A stretch of 64,000 nucleotides of DNA, from the IMG/VR virus record IMGVR_UViG_2585428004_000001, positions 55,987-119,986 of that record; one strand, written 5' to 3'. Source of the stretch: a virus (Duplodnaviria; Caudoviricetes). This document shows positions 2,404-58,043 of the stretch, one piece after another. How positions within the stretch are numbered: position 1 is the stretch's first letter; each line of letters starts with the position of its first letter. The notes under the pieces were generated by a model. It searched no databases, was not told the DNA's origin, and saw nothing but the letters and a program-made list of their open reading frames with translations. The position numbers and the translations under genes are program-made.

Positions 2404-2685
2404 ATGAAAGTAGCGATTTGTGAGGCGAAGAGTAATTATACGATTGAAGCAGGTGATTTAATTATTGCAAAGCATATCAAAGGACATATTCTAAACTATT
2501 TAGTTATCAAGGAGAGAGATGAGTTAATGCCTAAGTATAGACTTCTAAATGTAGACTCATCTTTTATAATGGCTACCTTTTCTTCTGGGAGAACGAGTGA
2601 CGTTGTAACATATGTTACTAAGAGTCTTAAATGCGAAATCTTGAGTGTCATTCCTGCAAGCAAACTACAATTAGGATTAAAGTGA
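2404..2685 (+). CDS. Hypothetical phage protein
   Basis: 93-aa ORF with AAGGAGG RBS. Confidence 0.8.
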   Translation: MKVAICEAKSNYTIEAGDLIIAKHIKGHILNYLVIKERDELMPKYRLLNVDSSFIMATFSSGRTSDVVTYVTKSLKCEILSVIPASKLQLGLK

Positions 2686-2733
2686 CAACTAATAAAAGTT
2701 AAGTTTTAATAACTATTACAGAAGGGTAGGAGT

Positions 2734-3009
2734 ATGACGATGGGGAGTCCAATAGACGATATGCTTGCTAAGCAAAGAGAGATTGATGAAAAGCTATCTC
2801 CAAGCAAATATGAAATGCGTTATATTACTGACTATGCAAGAGTGATTTATGACAAGGCTCAACTTGTAAACAATGCTTCTGAAATGGCTCACCAAGGATT
2901 GATTGATTTTGAACTTGCTCAAAAAATCATGGATACGCAAAAGGAAAACATTAAAAGTGATATTAAGTATCTGCAAATTTACTTAGGAATTGACGAAAAG
3001 GATAATTAA
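2734..3009 (+). CDS. Hypothetical phage protein
   Basis: 91-aa ORF with RBS. Confidence 0.75.
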   Translation: MTMGSPIDDMLAKQREIDEKLSPSKYEMRYITDYARVIYDKAQLVNNASEMAHQGLIDFELAQKIMDTQKENIKSDIKYLQIYLGIDEKDN

Positions 3010-3036
3010 ACAAATCCATTAAAAGGAGGTGATACG

Positions 3037-3285
3037 TTGAAACTACAAGACCTTAATAAAGTATTTGAAGAGGCTAGAAAGGTTAATGCAAGTTACGCTG
3101 GAATAATAGTATTGCCAACAGAAGAGGCTATTATCTTCAGTAGCAAAGTATTCGATTACAAACAAGAATACATTAATGACGTTTACAATGAAAACCTGCA
3201 ATTAAAGCATGCTAAGCATGTTCAGATTGTTGATTGTGCTTATGGTAAGACTTATCACGATATTCAAGTTAAATTGAAACGATAG
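3037..3285 (+). CDS. Hypothetical phage protein
   Basis: TTG start with AAGGAGGTGA RBS. Confidence 0.8.
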   Translation: MKLQDLNKVFEEARKVNASYAGIIVLPTEEAIIFSSKVFDYKQEYINDVYNENLQLKHAKHVQIVDCAYGKTYHDIQVKLKR

Positions 3286-3294
3286 GAGATGCCT

Positions 3295-3402
3295 ATGAGA
3301 AAGAGAAGAATGAAAGCACGAAAGAGAGATTTTATCCTAGGAATGTTCGAAGGAGTATGGGACTTCTTATTCATAGTGATATTTGGGTGGTGGATGGGTT
3401 GA
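3295..3402 (+). CDS. Small basic/hydrophobic membrane peptide (35 aa, MRKRRMKARKRDFILGMFEGVWDFLFIVIFGWWMG)
   Basis: Read manually; AGGAG RBS; stop overlaps the TTG start of the next ORF. Confidence 0.6.
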   Translation: MRKRRMKARKRDFILGMFEGVWDFLFIVIFGWWMG

Positions 3403-3548
3403 AAACAGAATTTACTAGAGAAGAGTTAACATCTATGTTCAATGCTCTTATTAAACAAAGCGCTTCAAATATGGCGGTTGACAAGAACTTAGAGAGCGCT
3501 ACTAAGAAAGTAATGAATCTAATAACAATTATGGATTCAACAAAATAA
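3399..3548 (+). CDS. Small hypothetical protein
   Basis: Frame of the 3357..3548 ORF; the TTG at 3399 is coupled to the upstream stop. Confidence 0.55.
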   Translation: MKTEFTREELTSMFNALIKQSASNMAVDKNLESATKKVMNLITIMDSTK

Positions 3549-3565
3549 GAAAGGATGGGTAGTTC

Positions 3566-4135
3566 GTGAGTCGATTCTTAATCAACTATGATGAATTACC
3601 CATTTCAGTAAATAACTATATTAAACCGAGTGCAAGTGTTATAGGCGGTAAGGCAATCGTGCATATGTACGAAACAAGAGAGAGCAAGGATTGGAAAAAG
3701 AGATTCCAAGCTTATTTAAAGCGAGAAGTAGTTAAGCAGAAATGGGATAAGGATTCAACATCAAAAGGACATTGGTATCTAGACTGCGTATTCTATCAAG
3801 CTAGAACCAATCAAGATAATAATAACTATTATAAAATTCTATGTGATGCTCTTAGTGGCATTGCAATAGAAGATGACAAGAATATCTTGGTTCGAACACA
3901 ACGAATATTCTACGATTCGAAACAGCCAAAATTCGTTGCTGTATTGAGGCAAGTTGACTATAGAGGCGTATGGAAAGATGAGGAACACTATTCTAAATTC
4001 TTTGCAGATAACTGTATGCAATGTAAGAAGAATCATGAGAAGTGTACGATTCTAAAGAAGGCAAAGGAAGGTCGTATACAGACTGAATTGAAACAAGAGA
4101 ATATGTTCCAGACTTGTGAGAAAAGGAAGGTATAG
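3566..4135 (+). CDS. rusA: RusA-family Holliday junction resolvase with C-terminal Cys cluster
   Basis: D-x-x-N-x-x-K-x3-D-A-L..DD signature (QDNNNYYKILCDALSGIAIEDDKNI). Confidence 0.8.
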   Translation: MSRFLINYDELPISVNNYIKPSASVIGGKAIVHMYETRESKDWKKRFQAYLKREVVKQKWDKDSTSKGHWYLDCVFYQARTNQDNNNYYKILCDALSGIAIEDDKNILVRTQRIFYDSKQPKFVAVLRQVDYRGVWKDEEHYSKFFADNCMQCKKNHEKCTILKKAKEGRIQTELKQENMFQTCEKRKV

Positions 4136-4226
4136 TTCGTCTATAGCTTCCTTTTTATTATTTACTTATTTACTGTAACACTGTATAATGGTTACATAAG
4201 ACTTATACCATACACGGAGGATATAT

Positions 4227-4724
4227 ATGAAGAAAAAGATACTGATAGGGATTTTAATTGTAATCGCTGTCATAGGGGTTACCCTTGGGTTCTTAGTGAA
4301 CAAAGCAAGCAATATGAAGAATGAATTTACAAGCTTTAGAGAAGAGTTGGATAAGGACTTCTTTCCATTAATAGAGGATACTCATACGTACTTTGAAATT
4401 GTAATCAAAAAAGGCGAGTCTCATGGATTGGAGAGTTGGTATATTACAGGGGATGGAATGACTGAAAACCTCAAATACAATACGAGAATAAAAGAGATAA
4501 GAGATAAAATTATAAACAAAGATATTGAGAATAAAGATGCACTTGAATTGAAGAAGAATGTTCTAAACACACTGTCCTTAACAGAGTCAGCTTTAAAGGA
4601 TGTAAACACCTTCTACAAAAATGAAAACTCTCATTTATTATGGGATAAATTAAACGAAGATTTGGATAAGTTAACCAAGAACATAGATGAACAGAACAAG
4701 ATATTAGGAAAATATTACAAATAG
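4227..4724 (+). CDS. Membrane-anchored or secreted protein (moron-like)
   Basis: N-terminal basic + hydrophobic segment; preceded by a terminator hairpin and its own TTTACT-17-TATAAT promoter. Confidence 0.8.
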   Translation: MKKKILIGILIVIAVIGVTLGFLVNKASNMKNEFTSFREELDKDFFPLIEDTHTYFEIVIKKGESHGLESWYITGDGMTENLKYNTRIKEIRDKIINKDIENKDALELKKNVLNTLSLTESALKDVNTFYKNENSHLLWDKLNEDLDKLTKNIDEQNKILGKYYK

Positions 4725-6082: not shown

Positions 6083-6390
6083 ATAGGTCACCTCCCTTCT
6101 CTTAAATTACAAGAAAAGGTAGATAATCCTTCCACCCTGCCAAAAGTTGTTAATTAATTATACCATAATATACTAAGACGTACTAGATATTCCAAGACAT
6201 TTAAGCGTATGGTACAATAGTAACGATTCGTCATTTAGATTTAGTTCTACACAAGAGCATCCTTTTGAGTCAAGGATGCTCTTGAATTTACATAATATTC
6301 AGAAATATCTTGAAAAATAAAACTCCTCCTCTTCATATCTAAATTCTATTATATAATTGAAGAAAAACATATATGGATGAGGAGGATACT

Positions 6391-7485
6391 ATGAACGTTT
6401 CAGTCAAAGGGAATGAACAGATTACTAATTTGTTAAACGACTGGTATGTAGAAATTCGTTCAAGGAATATTAACAGTGCTCACCGCTTAAAGTTAGAAAT
6501 CGACAAAAAGATTGATGATGTAGAAAATGACCAGTATCTACTATTATATTACTCTTTATTAGATTTTAGATATCAATATGTAATTGACAACCTAGGTGTC
6601 TCTGAAAATAGCTTTGATAAAATTGAATCCTTTGAAATTCCTACAGATAGCTTTCTATCCTATTATTATCATTTCTTTAAAGCAATTCATGCTAGTGGAA
6701 TTGGCAACTACATGATTGCGAGAGAGCATTTTGATAAGGCTGAGTTACTTTTAGAAACTATACCAGATGAAGTAGAAAAAGCTGAGTTTTATTATAAATT
6801 AGGAGCGTTTCATTTTGACATCTGCGAATCTCTTCAATCATTTAAGTACACAACTAAAGCGAAAGAGATGTTCTTACAACAAGGAAACTATGAGCGTAAT
6901 ATTGGTTTCTGCGAGAATCTTTTAGGAATGTCATGCGTTAGATTGAATGAATGGGCGTTGGCAGAGGAACATCTTGTTAAAGCAATGGATATATTCCAGA
7001 AGCTTAAAGAGGATACGTATATCTTGATGGTTCGCCACAACCTAGGATTTATGTATTCAAGTCAAAACCTTTCGGAATTAGCTATTAGATATTTGTCTGA
7101 GGTAACAAGTCAAAATCCTAGACATATTAAAGCCCTGTACCTTGAATCCAAAGAACGCTACAAATTAAATGAATTAAACATTGCAGAAGAACTTGCCAAT
7201 AAAGGGCATAGTATTTGTTGTGAATTAGGAAACATAGAGTATAGACATCATTTCTCTATTCTCAGAAATCTTATTAAAGATACATCTGCAGAAGAGTTAG
7301 AGACTGTAGTTTTGGAAGGAGTTTCTTATTTCAAAGACGAAGAATTATATGATTATATCCAAGAAAACCAAGAATATTTAGCTACTAAGTTTTACAAGGA
7401 AGATAATCACCTTAAAGCAAGCAAATACTTCTACCTAAGTTCACAGGCACGGCACAAGTCTAAGGAAAGGGAGGCTTTAAAATGA
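6391..7485 (+). CDS. rap: Rap-family response regulator aspartate phosphatase (TPR, RRNPP family)
   Basis: Rap N-terminus (LLNDWYVEIR..DQYLLLYYSLLDFRY) and TPR repeats (HNLG). The start at 6391 follows GAGGAGG; the ORF track gives 6373. Confidence 0.9.
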   Translation: MNVSVKGNEQITNLLNDWYVEIRSRNINSAHRLKLEIDKKIDDVENDQYLLLYYSLLDFRYQYVIDNLGVSENSFDKIESFEIPTDSFLSYYYHFFKAIHASGIGNYMIAREHFDKAELLLETIPDEVEKAEFYYKLGAFHFDICESLQSFKYTTKAKEMFLQQGNYERNIGFCENLLGMSCVRLNEWALAEEHLVKAMDIFQKLKEDTYILMVRHNLGFMYSSQNLSELAIRYLSEVTSQNPRHIKALYLESKERYKLNELNIAEELANKGHSICCELGNIEYRHHFSILRNLIKDTSAEELETVVLEGVSYFKDEELYDYIQENQEYLATKFYKEDNHLKASKYFYLSSQARHKSKEREALK

Positions 7486-44595: not shown

Positions 44596-46323
44596 TTAGA
44601 ATAAGCAGAATCCCAACATCTCGTCATCATGCATGTTTGTACGAAGAATGTCTTGCTCCAATAATGTAGCTACATAGTTACCATATCCAATGGATGAATA
44701 TCTATCTTTAGTGGTTGTTCCCACTTCTTCGATTTTGATATATCCACTAACAACTCTGTAAATAAGGTTTACGAGTTCGTTGGTTAATGCAGTAGCCTGT
44801 ACATATGGTTTAAGCAAGTAAACCTTTTCTTCTTCTGATTTTTTCAGATAGCCTTTTGATTCAATCAAATCTTCTTTTGCTTCAATATCATTCATAAGAA
44901 GTCTGATTTTTTGTTTCTCGAATGCGCTTTTTAGACCAGTAGCAACCTTGTGGTTAATTTCTGAGTTAGCTTTGATTGAGTAGATTAGAGGAATAGCATT
45001 CTTATCCATTTTCCTATCATCCATAGTCTCATCATTGATAACTGTCCAAGCAGGATACTCTACATCTCTAGCTTTGTCGTAGAGAATTTTTGTACAAGAA
45101 TCAAAGACTGCTATACCATTTCCGTTGGTATCCATAGCTACATAGTCACCTTCGAAATCATAGTATAGTTGCTTTAAGCGAATAGCCTGTAATTCTGAGT
45201 GCTGTCCAGATAAGCTTTCCATATAAACTACATCTCTTCTAAACTCGTCACCTTCTGGTAGTAGTCTCATAAGAGTGAATGCAGTTGTATCATTTTTAAC
45301 AGATTTGTTAGAACCCATTAACGCTATATCCATAGAAACTATTCTTATTTCGCCTGCTTGTTTAGGCATGTTTGATAGTTTCTTACGAGTACCTTTAGCC
45401 TCAACAAAATCTCTATCCGTTGGTGGATAGAATGCTTTTGGAAGAGTTCTACACTTCTGGATATCATCCAATTTAAAGTAGGCATTTTCATTTTCGCCTA
45501 CGAAGAGAGCCTCATATTCCATCGCCCAAGACATCTCGTCAAAGTCTTCTTCTGTTCTTTGCTGTTCTACACGCTTCTTAGAAAGTAGTCTATGGAAAAC
45601 AGAAAGTTGCCATGGTAAAACTGCAACGAAGTAATCCTTCCCTGCGAGCATCCCATTTAGATAAGATTTAAAGGAATCCCATATCCAATGGTTTTTATAC
45701 CAAGCTGAAGAAATATAAATCTCTTTATTCTCTTCTGATAGATGAGCATATTTTGGGTTTTGTAGATAAGGAGGTGTTCTGTTTACGTTAAGGAATGGCT
45801 TTAATATCTCGTCAATAGTCTTTTTTGAAATTAAACGAAACTCGTCAACTATTAATATATTTGCCCTGTAACCCCTAGCGTTATCCGATGAAGGTACGGC
45901 GGTTATCTTAGAACCATTTGTAAATAGAACATAGGTCTCGTTTGCACTAGTCTTAAACTCTGCTATCTCTCTGGCGACATTTGCCGAGTCGTTCTTGAGC
46001 TTCAATATCTTTTCAGTGATAATTAATCGAGCTTGTCCTTTTGTTCCACTAGCTAAAACAATGTTAGAACTAGGGTACAGGATTGCTCTTATAACGCAGT
46101 ATAAAGCGATTAGGTAGGATTTACCTTGCCCTCTGGCGGCGATATACATAAAGAAGTTGTACTTGTTCATAGCCCAAAGTAACAGCTTCTGATAAAGGAA
46201 TAAGTTAACTCCTAAGTAATCCTTGGCAAACCTGTGAGGATTTGCTCTATAAAAGGCTGTCCATATTTTGAAGCCTTGTCTTAATTTGTCTTGTGGTTGG
46301 GTTTTCTTCTTTTTAACAGCCAT
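44596..46323 (-). CDS. terL: Terminase large subunit
   Basis: Walker A AARGQGKS, Walker B ILIVDE, ISSA motif, C-terminal nuclease (SMDIA..KDRYS). Confidence 0.9.
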   Translation of the reverse strand: MAVKKKKTQPQDKLRQGFKIWTAFYRANPHRFAKDYLGVNLFLYQKLLLWAMNKYNFFMYIAARGQGKSYLIALYCVIRAILYPSSNIVLASGTKGQARLIITEKILKLKNDSANVAREIAEFKTSANETYVLFTNGSKITAVPSSDNARGYRANILIVDEFRLISKKTIDEILKPFLNVNRTPPYLQNPKYAHLSEENKEIYISSAWYKNHWIWDSFKSYLNGMLAGKDYFVAVLPWQLSVFHRLLSKKRVEQQRTEEDFDEMSWAMEYEALFVGENENAYFKLDDIQKCRTLPKAFYPPTDRDFVEAKGTRKKLSNMPKQAGEIRIVSMDIALMGSNKSVKNDTTAFTLMRLLPEGDEFRRDVVYMESLSGQHSELQAIRLKQLYYDFEGDYVAMDTNGNGIAVFDSCTKILYDKARDVEYPAWTVINDETMDDRKMDKNAIPLIYSIKANSEINHKVATGLKSAFEKQKIRLLMNDIEAKEDLIESKGYLKKSEEEKVYLLKPYVQATALTNELVNLIYRVVSGYIKIEEVGTTTKDRYSSIGYGNYVATLLEQDILRTNMHDDEMLGFCLF

Positions 46324-47157
46324 TAGTCTTCACCATCGAGCTTCTTGATGTCTTCGTCTTTGATTCTTCCAAAGACACGTTGCATCTGTACAATGAACCA
46401 TCGTTCAACATACTTATGGATACCATCAACATCTTTAAACTCTTCCTGCTGTTCTGAGATTGGCTCTTTATCCTCAATGAGTCGAATCCATTCTCCCCAA
46501 CTTGCTAATGCACCATCTTGTGATGCTGATTTAACTTGAACTGGCTTAATGTTTGCATCCTGCATCTGTGTGGATAAGGTCTTCATCATCTTTTCATATC
46601 TGTTTGAATCCCCATCTTCTTTGGCTTTGTTCGCCATCCACTGAGTTGTAGCCATGTTCTTGAAGAGTCTTTCTTGGAACGCATCTTCTGCGAATTCTCC
46701 ACCCAAGGCTGTGAACTCTTCTTCAAGGAAGATATAATCTTCTAGTTCGAGGTTTCTACCCCATTTTTTAACTATGGCATCGGTTAATTCGAAGTCATCA
46801 TAGTCAATGTCAACAAGTTCAGCTTTGTTAGTCTTTCCAGTGATATCGTCACTGTCCTTGAATCTTAACTCCTTATTCTGTTTAAGCGAGTTTAAGTTCT
46901 TCAAGTATGTTCCTATTGTTTCTGTATTGGCTTCGTTAGCCATCCTCCAGAATTCCTTGAGATAAGGAATATCCATTGTTCGTAGAAAATCATACAGTGT
47001 GTTCATGTCATCAAGATTGACATTCTCCCTTACACACTTTTTACAGAATCCAAATCTCTCATTAATCAATGAGTTTCTATGAGAATAGAAGCTAGATACC
47101 GCATAGTCATTACCGCATTTCAAACAGGTTTTCTTTTCTGATGTCGTTTTCGCCATC
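46323..47157 (-). CDS. Zn-finger protein, putative terminase small subunit
   Basis: CxxC..CxxC N-terminus, coupled to terL; start at the Met after AGGGG. Confidence 0.55.
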
Positions 47158-47215
47158 GTATCACCCCTTAAATGAAACACGTTAAAAGGAAGGGTTGTCG
47201 CCCTTCCTGCAGTTG

Positions 47216-47641
47216 TTATTTATTGATAATTTCAACCAATGACTGATAAATATCAGTTGGTCGTGTAAGTTCTATTACTTTAAGGCAGTCGCCTTTTTTC
47301 AAAAATTTCTCTCTAATTGCTTGCGGTAAGTAGTACGGTAGAATCAAGATGTCAGTTTCATGAAGTTTAATTCTTCCATCTTCTGTATAGATATTTTCAA
47401 CAAAGAATGCTGAGCATTCTACACTAGAAGAGATGATAAGATATTCACCTTCTGTTTTAATAGAGACTTCCTCATAACCTGACGTATTGATATCTTTTAG
47501 CAACTCAAGCGCATCACGTCTATCTAATACAATGGTTAAATCTTGATGAGTTTCACCAAAGTTATGACCATTGAACAGGTAAGCAATGTGGTTTAGAGTG
47601 TTCTCGATAGAGTTTGATTTTACTTGATACTGTTCCATCAC
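47216..47641 (-). CDS. Hypothetical protein
   Basis: 141-aa ORF with GAGGTG RBS. Confidence 0.7.
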   Translation of the reverse strand: MMEQYQVKSNSIENTLNHIAYLFNGHNFGETHQDLTIVLDRRDALELLKDINTSGYEEVSIKTEGEYLIISSSVECSAFFVENIYTEDGRIKLHETDILILPYYLPQAIREKFLKKGDCLKVIELTRPTDIYQSLVEIINK

Positions 47642-47802
47642 TTAGCACCTCTTAATAGGAATAATGAATAAGTGATATTCTTTTGCATCTCTGTATATCG
47701 TTGTAAATCAGAGATTTGCTTAATGTCTATATTTTTTGTTTGTGTAATTTCGTCAATCTTGTTCTGGATGTAAGCGAAATTATTCAATAGATTTTGTTCC
47801 AT
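47638..47802 (-). CDS. Small hypothetical protein (54 aa, MEQNLLNNFAYIQ...)
   Basis: Read manually; GAGAGGG RBS; stop overlaps the next start. Confidence 0.6.
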   Translation of the reverse strand: MEQNLLNNFAYIQNKIDEITQTKNIDIKQISDLQRYTEMQKNITYSLFLLRGAK

Positions 47803-48117
47803 ATATTCTTGCCCTCTCTCTCAAAGTTGGGTGCGAACTACAGTGCGTTAGGCTGTGTGAAGTTATAAAAACTTCACAACAAGGCAAAAAGGATTTTGCG
47901 AGATAACGAGTGCAACTAAAATAAATAACACTAACACAAAGGAGGCAATGGTGATGTGTCTTCACACACCCTGCCGCACTGTAGCAAGCTGTCATGTCTT
48001 GGTGTCCTTGGACAATCCAAGATTGGTCACTTTTGACCTGTCATTAATGGCTTCTTGAGCCAATCTTCATTCATATTAAATTGTCAAATTCTCGGAGGGC
48101 AGGTAAGCCCATAATAG

Positions 48118-48204
48118 TGGTGGGAAAGGCAGGATTTGAACCTGCAATGTCTCTTACGTCACGGTTTTACAGACCGCTTGCTTCACCAATTTGCATACTC
48201 GCCC
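48118..48204 (-). tRNA. tRNA-Tyr(GTA)
   Basis: Cloverleaf with long variable arm, loop CT-GTA-AA, encoded CCA. Confidence 0.9.
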
Positions 48205-48207
48205 ATG

Positions 48208-48321
48208 TGGCGGTAACAAACAAGAAAAGGAATCTTCTTGTGGGATATCTTCTGTGTCAGACCATTCTTTTCCACTACTACGAATTAGCAGTGCCTTCAC
48301 AGCAAGGCTCATCTAGTTACC
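48208..48321 (-). ncRNA. CCA-ended structured RNA with tRNA-like acceptor stem and non-tRNA interior
   Basis: GGTAAC/GTTACC-G-CCA closing stem, two 5' hairpins and a long stem. Confidence 0.45.
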
Positions 48322-48367
48322 TTTTGATGAGGTAGTAAACTGTCAAATCGAATTACACTAAGGTAAA

Positions 48368-48439
48368 AGGGGTATAAGGGAATCGAACCCTTGTCATCTG
48401 GTTGGAAGCCAGAGATAATAACCTCTATACGAATATCCC
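48368..48439 (-). tRNA. tRNA-Gly(TCC)
   Basis: TCTGG-CTTCCAA-CCAGA anticodon arm, TTCGATT T-loop, no encoded CCA. Confidence 0.8.
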
Positions 48440-48506
48440 GTGGAGGGAGTGACCTACTCCCAAAATCAACGTATTAAAAATAAAAAGATAGTTGGAGACT
48501 ATCAAA

Positions 48507-48578
48507 GGCGGGTGGCAGGATTCGAACCTGCGTTGCCTGCATCCCAAATGCAGTGACTGACCTCTAGCCTACACCCAC
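48507..48578 (-). tRNA. tRNA-Pro(TGG)
   Basis: CTGCA-TTTGGGA-TGCAG anticodon arm, TTCGAAT T-loop. Confidence 0.8.
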
Positions 48579-48679
48579 ATAAAGAGGCGAGCGTTATTCA
48601 ACATTCCCCTCAGACATGTCATTTGAAAATGTGCAATTAAGCACTGGCGACATTGGCGTTAGCCTATGTGCCTTAGATA

Positions 48680-48767
48680 AGGAAAAGACAGGACTCGAAC
48701 CTGCGCCACTAATAATAGTGCTAACTGTTTAGCAAACAGTCCTCTTAACCAACTTGAGTACCTTTCC
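48680..48767 (-). tRNA. tRNA-Ser(GCT)
   Basis: ACTGT-TTGCTAA-ACAGT anticodon arm, long variable arm. Confidence 0.85.
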
Positions 48768-48772
48768 ATAAG

Positions 48773-48848
48773 CTTCGGTGGAAGGGGTCGACCCCTTCCA
48801 CGCTCTAGGGTCAAAGCCTAGCGACTTTACCAATTTGTCTACACCGAA
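48773..48848 (-). tRNA. tRNA-Gln(TTG), atypical T-loop
   Basis: CTAGG-CTTTGAC-CCTAG anticodon arm; T-loop GTCGACC instead of TTCGA. Confidence 0.75.
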
Positions 48849-48854
48849 ATAATG

Positions 48855-48944
48855 TGGCAGAGGGTGTGGGATTCGAACCCACGCAGGCTTTTACACCCCT
48901 GCTAGTTTTCAAGACTAGTCTCTTAACCGCTTGAGTAACCCTCT
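48855..48944 (-). tRNA. tRNA-Ser(TGA)
   Basis: Canonical cloverleaf with long variable arm and CCA. Confidence 0.92.
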
Positions 48945-48983
48945 ATAAAAGCCCTATTGCTAGGGCTTGTCTAATTAAAATTA

Positions 48984-49100
48984 TTAATCACAGCTGCCAA
49001 AGCTACCAGAGTCACATGAACCAGAATCGCTTCCAGTATCATAGATGATAATTGGTGATGGTGATGGTGAACTTGGTCGTGGTCTACGTTTTGTTGTCAT
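48984..49100 (-). CDS. 38-aa Ser/Pro/Gly/Cys-rich peptide (MTTKRRPRPSSPSPSPIIIYDTGSDSGSCDSGSFGSCD)
   Basis: Read manually; AGGAGG RBS; followed by a terminator hairpin at 48948-48968. Confidence 0.65.
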   Translation of the reverse strand: MTTKRRPRPSSPSPSPIIIYDTGSDSGSCDSGSFGSCD

Positions 49101-49113
49101 AGTAGATATCCTC

Positions 49114-49458
49114 CTAGTTCTGAATCTTATCAGTTAATTGGTCGATACTAGCAAAGATTGTATCAGCTTGTTTCAATGCATTTACTACTTGACCTTGATT
49201 ATTATTAATTTGTTGTACCAAATTTTGGAATTGCATAGCAATCATTGGAACTTCTTGCTGTAACATAGAAGCCATTTGAGTAAGTTGACTCTCAATGTAA
49301 TCCAATTGTTGAACTGCCATATTAGCGTTTTGAATAGTTAATCTACCAGAATTCACCTGTGCATCAATCTGGTCTGCTACTCGTGCGCTCTTCATTCCTG
49401 TACCAAACATACCTAATCCATTACTTCCAAACATAGTTATTTCCTCTCTCTCACTCAT
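49114..49458 (-). CDS. Hypothetical Gln-rich helical protein
   Basis: ORF; the start is probably the second Met after GAGAGGA. Confidence 0.7.
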   Translation of the reverse strand: MSEREEITMFGSNGLGMFGTGMKSARVADQIDAQVNSGRLTIQNANMAVQQLDYIESQLTQMASMLQQEVPMIAMQFQNLVQQINNNQGQVVNALKQADTIFASIDQLTDKIQN

Positions 49459-49464
49459 ATAGTT

Positions 49465-49740
49465 TTATTTTAAGAACTCATTAATTTTGTTTTTAAATGA
49501 TACTGCTTGTGATTTCTTAGCTTCTGCTTCACGAATCACATTTTCTAATTCAGCGATTTTTGCTTGTGCTTCCTCGATAACTGCATCAACTTTCTTTTCA
49601 GACAGTTCAGCTTCTTCTAAAGCAGTAGCAAATGATGATTGTGCTGAGTCAATCCATTTTTGTGCTTTAGCAATTTCTTTCGAATGTGCTTTAGCATACT
49701 TTCCTAATAATGCCATCAAAATTGTTTTTAAGTAATTCAC
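49465..49740 (-). CDS. Hypothetical coiled-coil protein
   Basis: 91-aa ORF with GGGG RBS. Confidence 0.75.
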   Translation of the reverse strand: MNYLKTILMALLGKYAKAHSKEIAKAQKWIDSAQSSFATALEEAELSEKKVDAVIEEAQAKIAELENVIREAEAKKSQAVSFKNKINEFLK

Positions 49741-49771
49741 TTAATTCCCCACTCTCTCAGTAAAATTTATA

Positions 49772-49847
49772 TGGCGAGGCTGATGGGATTCGAACCCACG
49801 ACCTTCTGCGTGACAGGCAGACGAACACTCCGCTGTTCTACAGCCCC
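49772..49847 (-). tRNA. tRNA-Asp(GTC)
   Basis: Canonical 76-nt cloverleaf with CCA. Confidence 0.93.
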
Positions 49848-49958
49848 ATGATTAAAAGGCTCAGAGTGTCGTAGGCTCTGAGCCAAGGAGGTAGGAGGTA
49901 TTTCATTAACTATGAAAAAAATAATGTGTGATAAATTTGGTGGGCAATGCCCATAATA

Positions 49959-50061
49959 TGGAGTTCTGTAGGTGGGAGTCGAACCCACATGATAAATACT
50001 TGACCCTTTCTATCCCTTTGGGATTACTCGAACCTTTCAATATCGCTGACCTTCACAGAAC
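49959..50061 (-). ncRNA. tRNA-like RNA with acceptor stem, T-arm and CCA but no canonical D or anticodon arm
   Basis: GTTCTGTG/TACAGAAC-T-CCA and GTGGG-TTCGACT-CCCAC. Confidence 0.6.
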
Positions 50062-50065
50062 ATAA

Positions 50066-50142
50066 TGGCGTTCCAAGTAGGACTTGAACCTACGACCTTT
50101 CGCTTAACAGGCGACTGCTCTAACCAACTGAGCTACAGGAAC
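50066..50142 (-). tRNA. tRNA-Asn(GTT)
   Basis: Canonical cloverleaf with CCA. Confidence 0.92.
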
Positions 50143-50306
50143 AGTAGTTGAAGATGTTGGCGCATCTTCACACTTTCACTTGAAAAGGAGGATTTGCAAA
50201 GGGTTGCCGTTACCCTCTGCGCACACTTCCTATTCATCTACATCCGTCAATGTAGATATAAGGTAAATCAACGAACAATATATTTTGTTAGGAGGAACAA
50301 TAATAT

Positions 50307-50375
50307 TGGGCTGTGCTTGGATTTGAACCAAGATAAGGGATGCCTCCCTTGCATTTTACTTATGCTACACGAACC
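50307..50375 (-). tRNA. Aberrant tRNA (anticodon arm AAGGG-AGGCAT-CCCTT, 6-nt loop; possibly Cys-derived)
   Basis: D-arm GCAT/ATGC, T-arm CTTGG-TTCAAAT-CCAAG, bulged acceptor stem. Confidence 0.5.
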
Positions 50376-50440
50376 ATGTTAAAGGAGAGTTATGCGCTAC
50401 ACATAACTCTCTAAAAGAATAAGTCTAACTAAAAGTTAAA

Positions 50441-50725
50441 TTAGAATTTACGAATTGTTTTTGATAAAGTTGCTGTTGCTTTACGGTGTGCAGGAACTTC
50501 AACTGGTTCACCAGTCTTAGGATTCTTCGCTGTGCGAGCTTCAACTTCTTTAGTTGTGAAATCTACGAAGCCTTTAAGTTTAACATCTTCGCCTGCTTTT
50601 AAAGCATTAACTACTACAGTTTCTAAAGCGTCAACGTGTGCTTTAACTACTTTTTGAGAAGCCTCAATTTCGTGTGTTTCCTTAAGTTCTGCTTGTACTG
50701 CAACTACTACATCTTGTTTTAACAT
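50441..50725 (-). CDS. HU-family DNA-binding protein
   Basis: GEDVKLKGF..ARTAKNPKTGE motif; start at MLKQ. Confidence 0.92.
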   Translation of the reverse strand: MLKQDVVVAVQAELKETHEIEASQKVVKAHVDALETVVVNALKAGEDVKLKGFVDFTTKEVEARTAKNPKTGEPVEVPAHRKATATLSKTIRKF

Positions 50726-50800
50726 AATATCTTTTTCCCTCTTTCTCACTCACATTTAATAAAATGTTTGTTTTAATAATTTTAATGTTTTTGTTTTAGC

Positions 50801-50899
50801 GCTCGAAGGTAGGAATCGAACCCACATCTGTTCGTCTCAAACGACTTATATAATTACCAGTTCACTACTGGTCGCTTTCCCAATTAAGCTACTTCGAAC
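50801..50899 (-). tRNA. tRNA-His(GTG)-like with enlarged variable region
   Basis: 8-bp acceptor stem (G-1 like), ACCAG-TAGTGAA-CTGGT anticodon arm (A33), ~30-nt extra arm, T-arm TTCGATT. Confidence 0.55.
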
Positions 50900-51097
50900 A
50901 TGAAAAAACTAAGCTACCGTTGATAGCTTAGTTTGACTGTGTGATTGGGGAATATAATAAATTGACTAAGGAGGCAATTATTATGACTTGTAGGTAGTTT
51001 TGCAATGGTTTTGTTTAACCCCTACAATATATATAGCAGTAACTGCCTCGATAGTTGCACTTTTTTATTAATTTTTTTAAAAAGTTTTTTCGATGGT

Positions 51098-52132
51098 CTA
51101 TAAACCCTTGTTTTTCTCTACGTAATGCTTAGACACCTTTTTGCCAATTCTTTTAATGATACGAGTCATCTTGTACTGTGGAATATCATATTCCTTAACA
51201 ATGCGCTCTCTAGTATAGCCCTTTAAGAACAGGTTTAAAACCATTGATTCCTCTTCATTTAGCGTGTCGATATCAACAAGTACCTTATCTAATTCTTCTA
51301 TTAAAAGACCAATATCAGATGTCATGTCTACCTTTTCATAATGAGAAATCAATGCTCCAACAACCTTTTCATCATCTAGTTCAATGGAGTTAGTTAAGGC
51401 TCTACCTTGGCTACTGCCAGTATTTCTGAATCTGATTGGCTTCTTGATAGCTTCTTTAATTAAGACTTGATTGTCAGCCATATCTTTAATCCATCTATTA
51501 ACATAGATATCTACGTTTCTTCTAATCTTCTTCAAAGCTTCTCTGTCTTTTTCATCTACTATATTAGGAAGCATTTTGTCGATGCGTTCTGCTAGTCTCT
51601 TTTTATATGAATCCTGTTTCATCATATCAATACTGTCTTGCAGATTAGCAATTTCCTTAATCTCTCTAATGTCTTTAGCATAAAGCTTTTGGCTATCATC
51701 CATTCTGTAGTTCTGGTCGTTTGGGGAGAAGAACATATCTATTACCTCTACTCCCTCTTCCATACCTGCTTGCAGTGTAGATGTATTGATGTTTTGTGAT
51801 TCTTTATAGTTGTTAAACTCTCGTTGAGACTTCCAGAATCGATATACAATTTTACGACTTGATTCAATATCCTTTGCATTCAGTAAGTATGTACCAAGTA
51901 ATTCTAATGTTTTACATACAGCATCCTGCTCTGCCATCCATCCTTTTTGAGTTGGACTAGCATCATAGTATTCTGCAAAGTAAGTAGTTATGAAATCATG
52001 CAGACTACCATCCTCATTATTTAGTAATCCAGTAACCAGTTCTAATCTATCATCAAACTTTGTAATAGAAGCATCGTACTTCTGAAAGTCCACCAGCTTC
52101 TTTCCTTCTATTTCACTTGTAAAGTATTTCAC
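51098..52132 (-). CDS. Protein with C-terminal sigma region 4-like HTH (candidate transcription regulator)
   Basis: LNEEESMVLNLFLKGYTRERIVKEY pattern. Confidence 0.55.
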   Translation of the reverse strand: MKYFTSEIEGKKLVDFQKYDASITKFDDRLELVTGLLNNEDGSLHDFITTYFAEYYDASPTQKGWMAEQDAVCKTLELLGTYLLNAKDIESSRKIVYRFWKSQREFNNYKESQNINTSTLQAGMEEGVEVIDMFFSPNDQNYRMDDSQKLYAKDIREIKEIANLQDSIDMMKQDSYKKRLAERIDKMLPNIVDEKDREALKKIRRNVDIYVNRWIKDMADNQVLIKEAIKKPIRFRNTGSSQGRALTNSIELDDEKVVGALISHYEKVDMTSDIGLLIEELDKVLVDIDTLNEEESMVLNLFLKGYTRERIVKEYDIPQYKMTRIIKRIGKKVSKHYVEKNKGL

Positions 52133-57936: not shown

Positions 57937-58043
57937 TCATTAAACAAAACCATTGCAATATTAAACAAGCTGTGTTATTATGAAGCTAGTATTTATGTAA
58001 TAGCACAACTTAAAACAAAACCATTAAGATAAGGAGTTTTAGG

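Follow-up and report, generated by a model that had tools for sequence, protein, structure and literature searches.

Why do the spacers of a phage transfer RNA (tRNA) operon carry, on the strand opposite to the tRNAs, strings that look like ribosome-binding sites and start no gene? The question is raised by a 3.2-kb minus-strand island that lies between a sigma-factor-like gene and the packaging and structural genes in a 64,000-nucleotide stretch of the phage record IMGVR_UViG_2585428004_000001, which we call the window (C4:12262-76261). C4, with 120,096 bp and an even G+C content of 0.34-0.38, probably spans the entire genome of this large, Bacillus-type phage. The large terminase shares 45% identity with SPbeta YonF and 52% with the counterpart in Lysinibacillus phage LC76P1, and the phage is therefore, on sequence comparison, an SPbeta-like siphophage. 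The most conserved short motif of the island sits in its spacers, and it is the complement of a ribosome-binding site. We tentatively suggest, at somewhat less than even confidence, that the spacers are cut out by tRNA processing as small RNAs whose seed is complementary to translation initiation regions.

CCUCCU tracts in the spacers of the tRNA island

The first-pass annotation had placed five Shine-Dalgarno (SD)-like strings on the plus strand of the island, and all five are found there: AAAGGAGGCAATG at 47938-47950, AAGGAGGTAGGAGG... from 49885, AAAAGGAGGATTT at 50183-50195, TTAGGAGGAAC at 50288-50298 and AAGGAGGCAATTATTATGAC from 50968. Read on the tRNA-sense (minus) strand, on which the features below lie unless stated otherwise, these strings are CCUCCU tracts, here named (a) to (e) in the direction of the tRNAs. 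Tract (a) (GUCAUAAUAAUUGCCUCCUU, 50968..50987) joins an anti-SD to an anti-AUG sequence in the leader, tract (b) (GUUCCUCCUAA, 50288..50298) lies in the 3' trailer of tRNA-like element 3, tract (c) is AAAUCCUCCUUUU (50183..50195), and tract (d) (CCUCCUACCUCCUU, 49885..49898) is a double anti-SD. Tract (e) (AUUGCCUCCUUUGUGUUAGUGUUAUU, with its CCUCC part within 47938-47950) belongs to a conserved structured leader, about 150 nt long, that precedes the first structural gene (47838..47984). Many tracts share (A)CCUCCU(U) with the 3' tail of the host 16S ribosomal RNA (rRNA), GAUCACCUCCUUUCU; in relative L051, tract (c) shares ten bases, CACCUCCUUU, with this tail.

All tracts adjoin hairpins and tRNAs or tRNA-like elements, in the window and in its relatives, which agrees with the earlier description of tracts bracketed by hairpins. 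The two hairpins named in that description are both present. One lies at 49858-49884 with AAAA/UUUU at 49854-49857, so that hairpin and UUUU (49854..49884) adjoin tract (d) on its 3' side and leave 6 nt to tRNA-Asp, and the other, at 50906..50934, is followed by a U-run and stands directly 5' of tRNA-like element 1. Tract (c) has a hairpin on its 5' side (50196..50220) and a second one (50149..50170) that separates it from tRNA-Asn. The spacer RNA of tract (d) begins with a 5' hairpin (49942..49954), the stems of which differ by compensating changes between L001 and L051.

The tracts are strongly enriched and confined to one strand. Plus-strand GGAGG occurs 34 times in the window; eight copies fall within 47941-50970, and the remaining ~43 kb of minus-strand gene territory holds only nine, all within long open reading frames (ORFs). 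Sense-strand CCTCC was counted five times in the non-tRNA, non-ORF spacers of the window against 0.6 expected, a number reached by none of 300 dinucleotide shuffles, and each of five relatives gave 5-9 copies against 0.55-1.0 expected (again 0 of 300 shuffles each), an approximately 10-fold excess. These counts are a floor, because spurious ORFs of at least 60 amino acids (aa) masked some spacers, including the one with window tract (d). Sense-strand GGAGG stays at chance level, with 0-2 copies per island. Over the non-tRNA parts of eight islands, CCUCC is followed by U in 52 of 62 occurrences.

Sense-oriented CCTCC is absent from all other intergenic regions of the minus-strand gene block. 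In the host, a free CCTCC was found within 80 nt upstream of none of 89 tRNAs, and all 13 hits lay inside the neighbouring, preceding tRNA. The spacers of other phage tRNA arrays gave four CCTCC in 1713 nt (TsarBomba) and none in 1874 nt (PJN02), counts that led us to reject the tracts as a general feature of Bacillus phage tRNA arrays. SPbeta has no tRNAs at the corresponding position, where a 1.7-kb non-coding gap is found instead, and no tRNAs are annotated upstream of the terminase gene of Lysinibacillus phage LC76P1. The tracts are thus specific to one group of SPbeta-like phages and are not a habit of the host.

Eight phages with tracts were compared, namely the window (WIN) and L001, L050, L149, L051, L053, L061 and L176. 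From IMG/VR, L001 was found through the sigma protein, L041, extended to L050, through the pattern of tRNA-like element 2, L051, L053, L055 and L061 through terminase alignment, and L149 and L176 through a 14-nt double-tract string. Among the 88 matches listed for this string, three adjoin tRNAs, and all three lie between tRNA-Asn and tRNA-Asp. L057/L159, a fragment near-identical to L053, was not counted separately, and L054, L056 and L058-L060, with no tRNAs in their sequence stretch, were left out. Megablast of the island against INPHARED gave tRNA-sized hits only, in 20 records with a coverage of at most 3% each; for 71 host-genus genomes (one unscored), a DNA search returned host tRNA matches only, and none of 147 pattern hits from a sigma-alignment scan of genome contigs was confirmed. 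The sole hit of a metagenome scan with a 22-nt pattern of tRNA-like element 2, L042, was rejected as an unrelated coding sequence.

Conservation in related phages, on which the earlier proposal hung, was found: the tracts recur at matching positions in the seven relatives while their flanks change. The 13-nt core of tract (d), CCUCCUACCUCCU, is invariant in all eight phages and always lies between tRNA-Asn (anticodon GUU, CCA encoded, 50066..50142) or tRNA-like element 2 and tRNA-Asp (GUC, 49772..49847), both tRNAs being called by ARAGORN and Rfam. A hairpin follows directly in six phages and after 14-23 nt in L061/L176, with tRNA-Asp next; its stem has five different sequences among the eight phages, and the upstream linker varies in both length and sequence. 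Tracts (b) and (c) are represented in all eight, as two tracts in six phages and as a single one in L050/L149. Tract (b), CCUCCU(CCU)AA, starts at the discriminator position of a pseudo-tRNA or at most 4 nt past it (13 nt in the window), and its orthologues in L001, L051, L053, L061 and L176 read CCUCCUCCU, 0-4 nt past the pseudo-tRNA acceptor strand. In L001, L051 and L053, tract (c) comes after a hairpin and reads (C)ACCUCCU(UU), with its last base 0-4 nt short of the tRNA-Asn start called by ARAGORN; the order in the window, L061 and L176 is tract, hairpin, tRNA. The two outer tracts are less constant. Tract (a), AUUGCCUCCUU, placed in the leader before the hairpin and tRNA-like element 1, has an intact CCUCC in five of eight phages (WIN, L001, L050, L149 and L053) and a degenerate one in L051, and has lost it in L061/L176; a hairpin occupies the place of 50906..50934 in relatives, with differing sequences. 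Tract (e) keeps CCUCC in WIN, L051, L053, L061 and L176 (5/8) and is degenerate in L001, L050 and L149. Further tracts have arisen at new sites in single lineages, for example at L051:2824 and L061:3846, where a tRNA-like element ends in N-CCUCCU instead of the expected N-CCA.

Two observations concern the surroundings of the outer tracts. WIN, L051, L053, L061 and L176 have a further C-rich motif, UUCCCCAA, 15-25 nt downstream of tract (a) (50930-50960, minus strand in the window); its position reads UUCCCAA in L001, and the motif is complementary to UGGGGAA in the leader of the 91-aa gene. In the leader of tract (e), CUUCAC(AC) has two competing partners, a distal GGGUGUGUGAAG and a local GUGAAG, around a conserved core UUAGUUGCACUCGUUAUCUCGCA, and the leader at 47838-47984 looks like a two-state RNA switch.

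Strand, folding and a possible route to small RNAs

The earlier description of the tracts as single-stranded is supported by folding predictions for most of them: on the sense RNA, 28 of 40 tracts have a probability of at least 0.2 that all 6 nt are unpaired, the median for the island being ~0.05. For AGGAGG on the antisense RNA, 0.2 is reached in 9 of 40 cases. In the window, the predicted probability is 0.94 for tract (b) and 0.49-0.58 for tract (d). The sense fold of spacer (d) consists of the 5' hairpin, an open CCUCCUACCUCCUU, the 3' hairpin and UUUU, with z = -5.0; three sense spacers gave z = -5.0, -4.2 and -3.4 versus -3.3, -3.7 and -0.8 for their antisense RNAs. G-U pairs that are possible only on the minus-strand RNA occur in a few hairpins, such as 50196-50220 (one pair) and the tract-(a) hairpin of L001, and appear to favour the sense RNA, weakly, because most stems are purely Watson-Crick.

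An anti-AUG, claimed by the first-pass annotation for some tracts, is borne out by CAU 5-11 nt upstream in 18 of 37 tract runs, and it is not found at all tracts. Scores in the same position were 3-12 for the remaining five permutations of A, C and T, and CAU was found in a same-sized downstream window of 3 of 37 runs. At tract (d), the position of CAU and the spacer vary, as is seen in the plus-strand readings ttttaaaATG, ttttaaatATG, ttttacATG and tcttgatATG. These sequences suggest that what selection maintains is an "initiation region" in general, or its complement, and not any single sequence. This cuts both ways: real ribosome sites have such a look, and the streptococcal csRNAs also carry CCUCCU with an anti-start codon, in an unpaired stretch that two stem-loops flank.

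Four lines point to the tRNA-sense RNA as the strand that would matter: production of the tRNAs needs its transcription, and an extended -10-like element points in the same direction; the tracts are predicted to be open on it; the sense spacers fold; and the plus-strand "genes" fail. The promoter-like element, an extended -10 of the TGnTATATA type followed by GTAGGGG (51020..51038), lies just downstream of the sigma-factor gene, and its sequence is kept in WIN, L001, L050/L149, L051, L053, L061 and L176. Judging from its sequence and orientation, it would drive transcription of the island in the tRNA-sense direction.

The proposed route is as follows. The island is a minus-strand tRNA operon with five or six predicted single-stranded CCUCCU tracts in its spacers. 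Their sequence agrees with the host 16S 3' tail in the CCUCCU core and sometimes beyond it, and they are thus complementary to SD sequences; with CAU 5-11 nt upstream of about half of them, they may together form an "anti-initiation-region." Cutting by RNase P at tRNA 5' ends and by RNase Z or 3' exonucleases at tRNA 3' ends, and perhaps also at the tRNA-like elements, would free spacer RNAs of ~50-300 nt (109 nt for the window tract-(d) spacer). In each of them an open CCUCCU seed would stand between a cap at the 5' end, either a hairpin or a tRNA-like element, and a terminator-like hairpin that protects the 3' end; where the tract abuts the 5' end of tRNA-Asn, as in some relatives, a hairpin with a free ACCUCCU-3' tail resembling the 16S 3' end would result. 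The hairpin at 50934-50906 passes an intrinsic-terminator scan, the tract-(d) hairpin has only UUUU, and the U-run after the latter is missing in L050, L053 and L061; the place of these hairpins just before tRNAs argues for a role in 3'-end protection. Base pairing to SD and start-codon regions may then set the spacer RNAs in competition with 30S subunits, whereby translation would be damped or re-timed. We infer their release as stable RNAs, their action in trans and the identity of their targets.

Several known RNAs resemble parts of this scheme. According to one report (PMC4438229), streptococcal csRNAs have two stem-loops that flank an unpaired CCUCCU anti-SD and an anti-start codon, and several sibling copies exist per genome. 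Spacer (d), with its predicted order of hairpin, open tract and hairpin, and the enrichment of CAU upstream of the tracts recall these RNAs at the level of prediction; the tract units differ in being phage-borne, in lying inside a tRNA operon, from which tRNA processing would release them, and in having another host. Each csRNA is encoded by a separate chromosomal gene with a CiaR promoter and a terminator of its own, and to our knowledge these RNAs occur only in streptococci. A scan of 47000-52000 against Rfam 15 (E ≤1) returned tRNA hits and four weak matches (E 0.1-0.4) to unrelated families only. By analogy, it is possible, and we hold it tentatively, that the tracts work like a csRNA-type anti-SD small RNA combined with a tRNA-operon-spacer regulator; because they show no homology and have a different genomic setting and host, they are not members of the csRNA family.

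The second half of that analogy is represented by E. coli 3'ETS-leuZ, a regulatory RNA excised from a tRNA-operon spacer during tRNA maturation, which serves as a sponge for Hfq-dependent small RNAs in a Gram-negative host. The tracts likewise lie in spacers between co-oriented tRNAs, and excision of their RNAs is predicted, whereas 3'ETS-leuZ has no anti-SD tract, forms no array and is not phage-borne. The tRNA cluster of phage T4 yields stable non-tRNA RNAs of unknown function (species 1 and 2) from the same precursor as the tRNAs; we know of no anti-SD tract in them, and phage, host and sequence are different. In Firmicutes, small RNAs with C-rich seeds (RoxS/RsaE and the Staphylococcus aureus RNAs with a UCCC motif) occlude SDs through unpaired C-rich motifs, which are CCCC or UCCC in the hairpin loops of stand-alone genes with defined regulons. 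The phage seed, in contrast, is the exact 16S-tail sequence (A)CCUCCU(U) and is placed in linkers.

The 16S 3' tail itself, helix 45 followed by ...CACCUCCUUUCU-3', is resembled by the hairpin-(C)ACCUCCU(UU) arrangement just before tRNA-Asn in L001, L051 and L053, since cutting by RNase P at tRNA-Asn would give a hairpin from which an anti-SD tail extends to a free 3' end. The two differ in that the phage hairpin has no sequence similarity to helix 45 and no ribosomal context, and the window tract is internal, between two hairpins. A bolder idea, which we consider somewhat unlikely, is that the phage makes an array of free 16S-3'-tail mimics, i.e., hairpin-anchored (A)CCUCCU(U) units, part of them with an anti-AUG, which RNase P and RNase Z would mature from the tRNA operon to tRNA-level abundance. 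They would act as a global, sequence-generic translation brake or temporal switch, through competition with 30S subunits for SDs, or as decoys for a host factor or nuclease aimed at the anti-SD tail. If so, the repeated gain of tracts in single lineages would reflect selection for dosage.

The usual explanation for phage tRNA clusters is codon supply or evasion of tRNA-cleaving defences, and what lies between the tRNAs is disregarded. For anti-SD tracts in phage tRNA-operon spacers, no description was found in a full-text search of a literature collection that covers a minority of subscription-journal papers. If the spacer RNAs are stable, they would constitute an anti-SD RNA system with several copies, encoded by a phage and produced in the course of tRNA maturation, and thus a new viral means of adjusting or taking over translation in Firmicutes, a group that relies heavily on SD pairing. 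This would also be a reason to examine the "non-tRNA" parts of other phage tRNA arrays.

Target searches and alternative explanations

The following results weigh against spacer RNAs with an anti-SD seed. In the window, tracts (a) and (c) are predicted to be paired, tract (c) partly, with probabilities of 0.045 and 0.068 of being unpaired. Tract (a) overlaps a sigma-70-like -10 candidate hexamer, and tract (e), degenerate in three of eight phages, lies within a structured leader; both may have another role. L055, which has a related island, has no tracts at all, and the eight phages are not eight independent observations, because they are kin and L050/L149 and L061/L176 are close pairs. The complement of the tract-(d) 13-mer has no other copy with at most one mismatch in the 5.6-Mb genome, and the best exact matches of the five pseudo-initiation regions elsewhere (blastn-short) measured 13-16 nt, about what chance gives. 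A candidate target of tract (a) was the phage gene for a DHH phosphoesterase, with a start region (GGAGGCAATTTATTATGAC at 985-1003) that resembles the tract (a) plus strand, GGAGGCAATTATTATGAC; it was rejected, since the DHH starts of L001, L053 and L050 mismatch their own tract (a). In G071, the same plus-strand string heads an unrelated 126-aa gene. For the shut-off of early phage or host messenger RNAs (mRNAs) that had been envisaged, no specific target with longer complementarity emerged in either genome, and the tracts are therefore treated as generic.

A generic anti-SD RNA would also hit phage mRNAs, as phage ORFs use SDs about as often as host ORFs do: a match of at least 5 nt precedes 82 of 127 phage ORFs versus 260 of 492 host ORFs, in a comparison with a start choice biased towards SDs and a host list that includes spurious ORFs. 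The distributions of SD-match length are similar as well, and the notion that the phage avoids SDs and is spared by its own RNA found no support; a simple shut-off of the host alone is not supported by these numbers.

The negative target search would also be expected if the tracts acted in cis on the tRNA precursor, as signals for processing, stability, anti-termination or folding or as sites for a phage or host RNA-binding protein, an alternative that we judge unlikely. Several of its predictions fit the island: a hairpin and a tRNA or tRNA-like element adjoin each tract, several tracts begin at the discriminator position of a tRNA-like element (or within 4 nt past it) or abut the RNase P site of tRNA-Asn, and window tract (c) can pair with an upstream purine run in the predicted fold. 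Tract (e) lies in a leader that co-varies, its long-range helix CUACAGUGCG/CGCACUGUAG being replaced by CUACAGUGUAC/GUACACUGUAG in L001. However, no conserved complementary partner is present on the same strand, where GGAGG is as rare as noted above, most tracts are predicted to be open, and the host tRNA operons do without such tracts (0/89). The enrichment of an anti-AUG at an SD-like spacing has, moreover, no obvious meaning for processing.

A function of the plus strand appears quite improbable. In this case the strings would be real ribosome sites on an antisense transcript, as mini-ORFs or start-stop units, as ribosome decoys, or as 5' stabilisers of the STAB-SD type; STAB-SD and polypurine 5' stabilisers of Bacillus mRNAs are SD-like GGAGG strings that start no gene and act on the transcribed RNA, and the phage GGAGG differs in lying on the strand opposite to all tRNAs and genes. 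An ATG does follow GGAGG after 5-11 nt in 20 of 52 tracts, spacing and spacer sequence vary as in real initiation regions, and tract (a), read on the plus strand, has the same sequence as the start region of the G071 126-aa gene and nearly that of the DHH gene. The first-pass annotation had stated that these strings lead to no real gene, and this was confirmed, as the mini-ORFs exist as strings but are tiny or badly spaced, and unconserved. Their length is 1-31 codons, with 15 in L050 against 4 in its near-identical counterpart L149, and WIN and L053 do not share the frame that follows tract (e). Tract (b) has an ATG within 5-11 nt in 0 of 8 phages, and at tract (c) of L001, L051 and L053 a 9-bp hairpin begins right behind the SD, so that the start codon is either hidden in it or replaced. 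The lower accessibility of AGGAGG on plus-strand RNA speaks against ribosome sites too, as does the setting, since all long ORFs and tRNAs from 7.5 to 54 kb are on the minus strand and no convincing plus-strand promoter was found (14 candidates versus 10.5 +/- 3.7 in shuffles).

It is very doubtful that the tracts are relics of decayed tRNA 3' acceptor strands (with 5' ends GGAGG) or parts of promoters or operators at the DNA level: class-II tRNAs of host and phage do end in ...CUACCUCCU-CCA or ...CUCUCCU-CCA, one host tRNA 3' end matches the tract-(d) 13-mer at 11 of 13 positions, the island has three decayed tRNA-like elements, a -10-like hexamer overlaps tract (a), and in several relatives a -10-like string follows tract (b), but invariance of 13 nt in eight phages amid changing flanks is not expected of a relic, tract (d) has no T-loop in front of it, tracts lie anywhere from 6 to 159 nt from the tRNA start with no fixed spacing to -10-like elements, and the absence of sense CCTCC from other intergenic regions of the minus-strand block excludes a general promoter element. 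The promoter reading was also rejected by a consensus scan, which gave hits at shuffle level.

The tRNAs, neighbouring genes and other elements of the phage

ARAGORN called eight minus-strand tRNAs in the island, and Rfam found the same eight and a ninth, tRNA-like match at 50801-50898; two more tRNA-like elements have no normal anticodon arm (49959-50061 and ~50309-50375). Besides tRNA-Asn and tRNA-Asp, the tRNAs are Ser, Gln, Ser, Pro, Gly and Tyr (48118..48944, both programs), with conserved spacers. Weaker minus-strand CCCUCC sites are found at plus-strand 48441-48446, within a hairpin stem, and at 48093-48098, 3' of tRNA-Tyr and just beyond the span of these six.

The three additional elements fail as tRNAs: ARAGORN makes no call at default settings, and relaxed settings give aberrant anticodon loops or assumed introns. 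Element 1 (50801..50898) has an acceptor stem and a T arm with an aberrant anticodon region, scores 41 bits with the Rfam tRNA model, and is called by ARAGORN with relaxed settings or an assumed intron. Element 3 (50309..50375), a decayed or miniature pseudo-tRNA, has a T arm and a weak acceptor stem, and its L061 orthologue is called a tRNA by ARAGORN. Element 2 (49959..50061), with an acceptor stem, a T arm and NCCA but no normal anticodon arm, gave neither an Rfam hit nor a default ARAGORN call, and it is near-identical in L001 and L050.

Element 2 is of interest in its own right. It measures ~103 nt (L001 9962-10068; also in L050, L053 and L061), with a perfect T arm, NCCA and no anticodon arm, and it is better conserved than the adjacent true tRNAs. 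Its 7-bp acceptor stem co-varies (GUUCUGU/ACAGAAC, GGACAGU/ACUGUCC and GUGCGU/ACGCAC), including in L053 and L061.

The sigma-factor-like gene (51098-52132, PHROG 5767) lies on one side of the island, and the terminase gene (44596-46323) is among the packaging and structural genes on the other. Within the island, a gene for an HU-like DNA-binding protein (50441..50749; Pfam PF00216, E = 6e-20; PHROG 379) probably starts at the ATG near 50725. The small ORFs of 91, 114 and 38 aa had no match above threshold in scans of family libraries. At the four protein genes within the island or directly after it, HU, 91 aa, 114 aa and 54 aa (~50751, ~49758, ~49452 and ~47822, minus strand), GGAGG is replaced by an unusual purine leader, (U)GAGAGAGAGGG/GAGAGAGUGGGGAA, and the same purine leaders occur in relatives, the tract-free L055 included.

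A motif of the form TTAAACAAAACCATTG(C/A)AA recurs ~70 times (at most 3 mismatches) over the 120-kb phage, nearly always in gene sense and in intergenic regions, for example at 51018, 53952, 39944 and 36455 on the minus strand and at 57940 and 55905 on the plus strand. Its copies often lie a few bases ahead of an SD. Some copies have TATAAT-like hexamers 17 nt after TTGCAA, a spacing that would make the motif an UP/-35 promoter element; relatives have the variant TTAAACAAAAGTATTG. Elsewhere, CUCCUCCUC at ~6323 (+), ~50 nt upstream of the SD GAGGAGGA of gene 6373-7485, looks like an ordinary cis anti-SD hairpin that could mask the ribosome site of this gene.

In SPBc2 (L135), the 1.7-kb unannotated gap at the position of the tRNA island lies between yonN (HU-like) and yonK (2622-4304), and it contains a match to the Rfam DUF3800-VIII RNA at 3982-4047 (47.5 bits, above the gathering score). 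A spacer element of ~60 nt (AUGCAGGUUGCNAUUAACGAU...CCUGCUCCA) is common to L050 (~3975-4035 of the reverse complement) and the unrelated myovirus TsarBomba (L247), and directly precedes a tRNA in both. Finally, ARAGORN assigned a four-base anticodon (agcg) to L001 11184-11265, the counterpart of which in L050 (4036-4117 of the reverse complement) is tRNA-Ala (agc); this tRNA-like gene may be an aberrant or frameshift-type tRNA.

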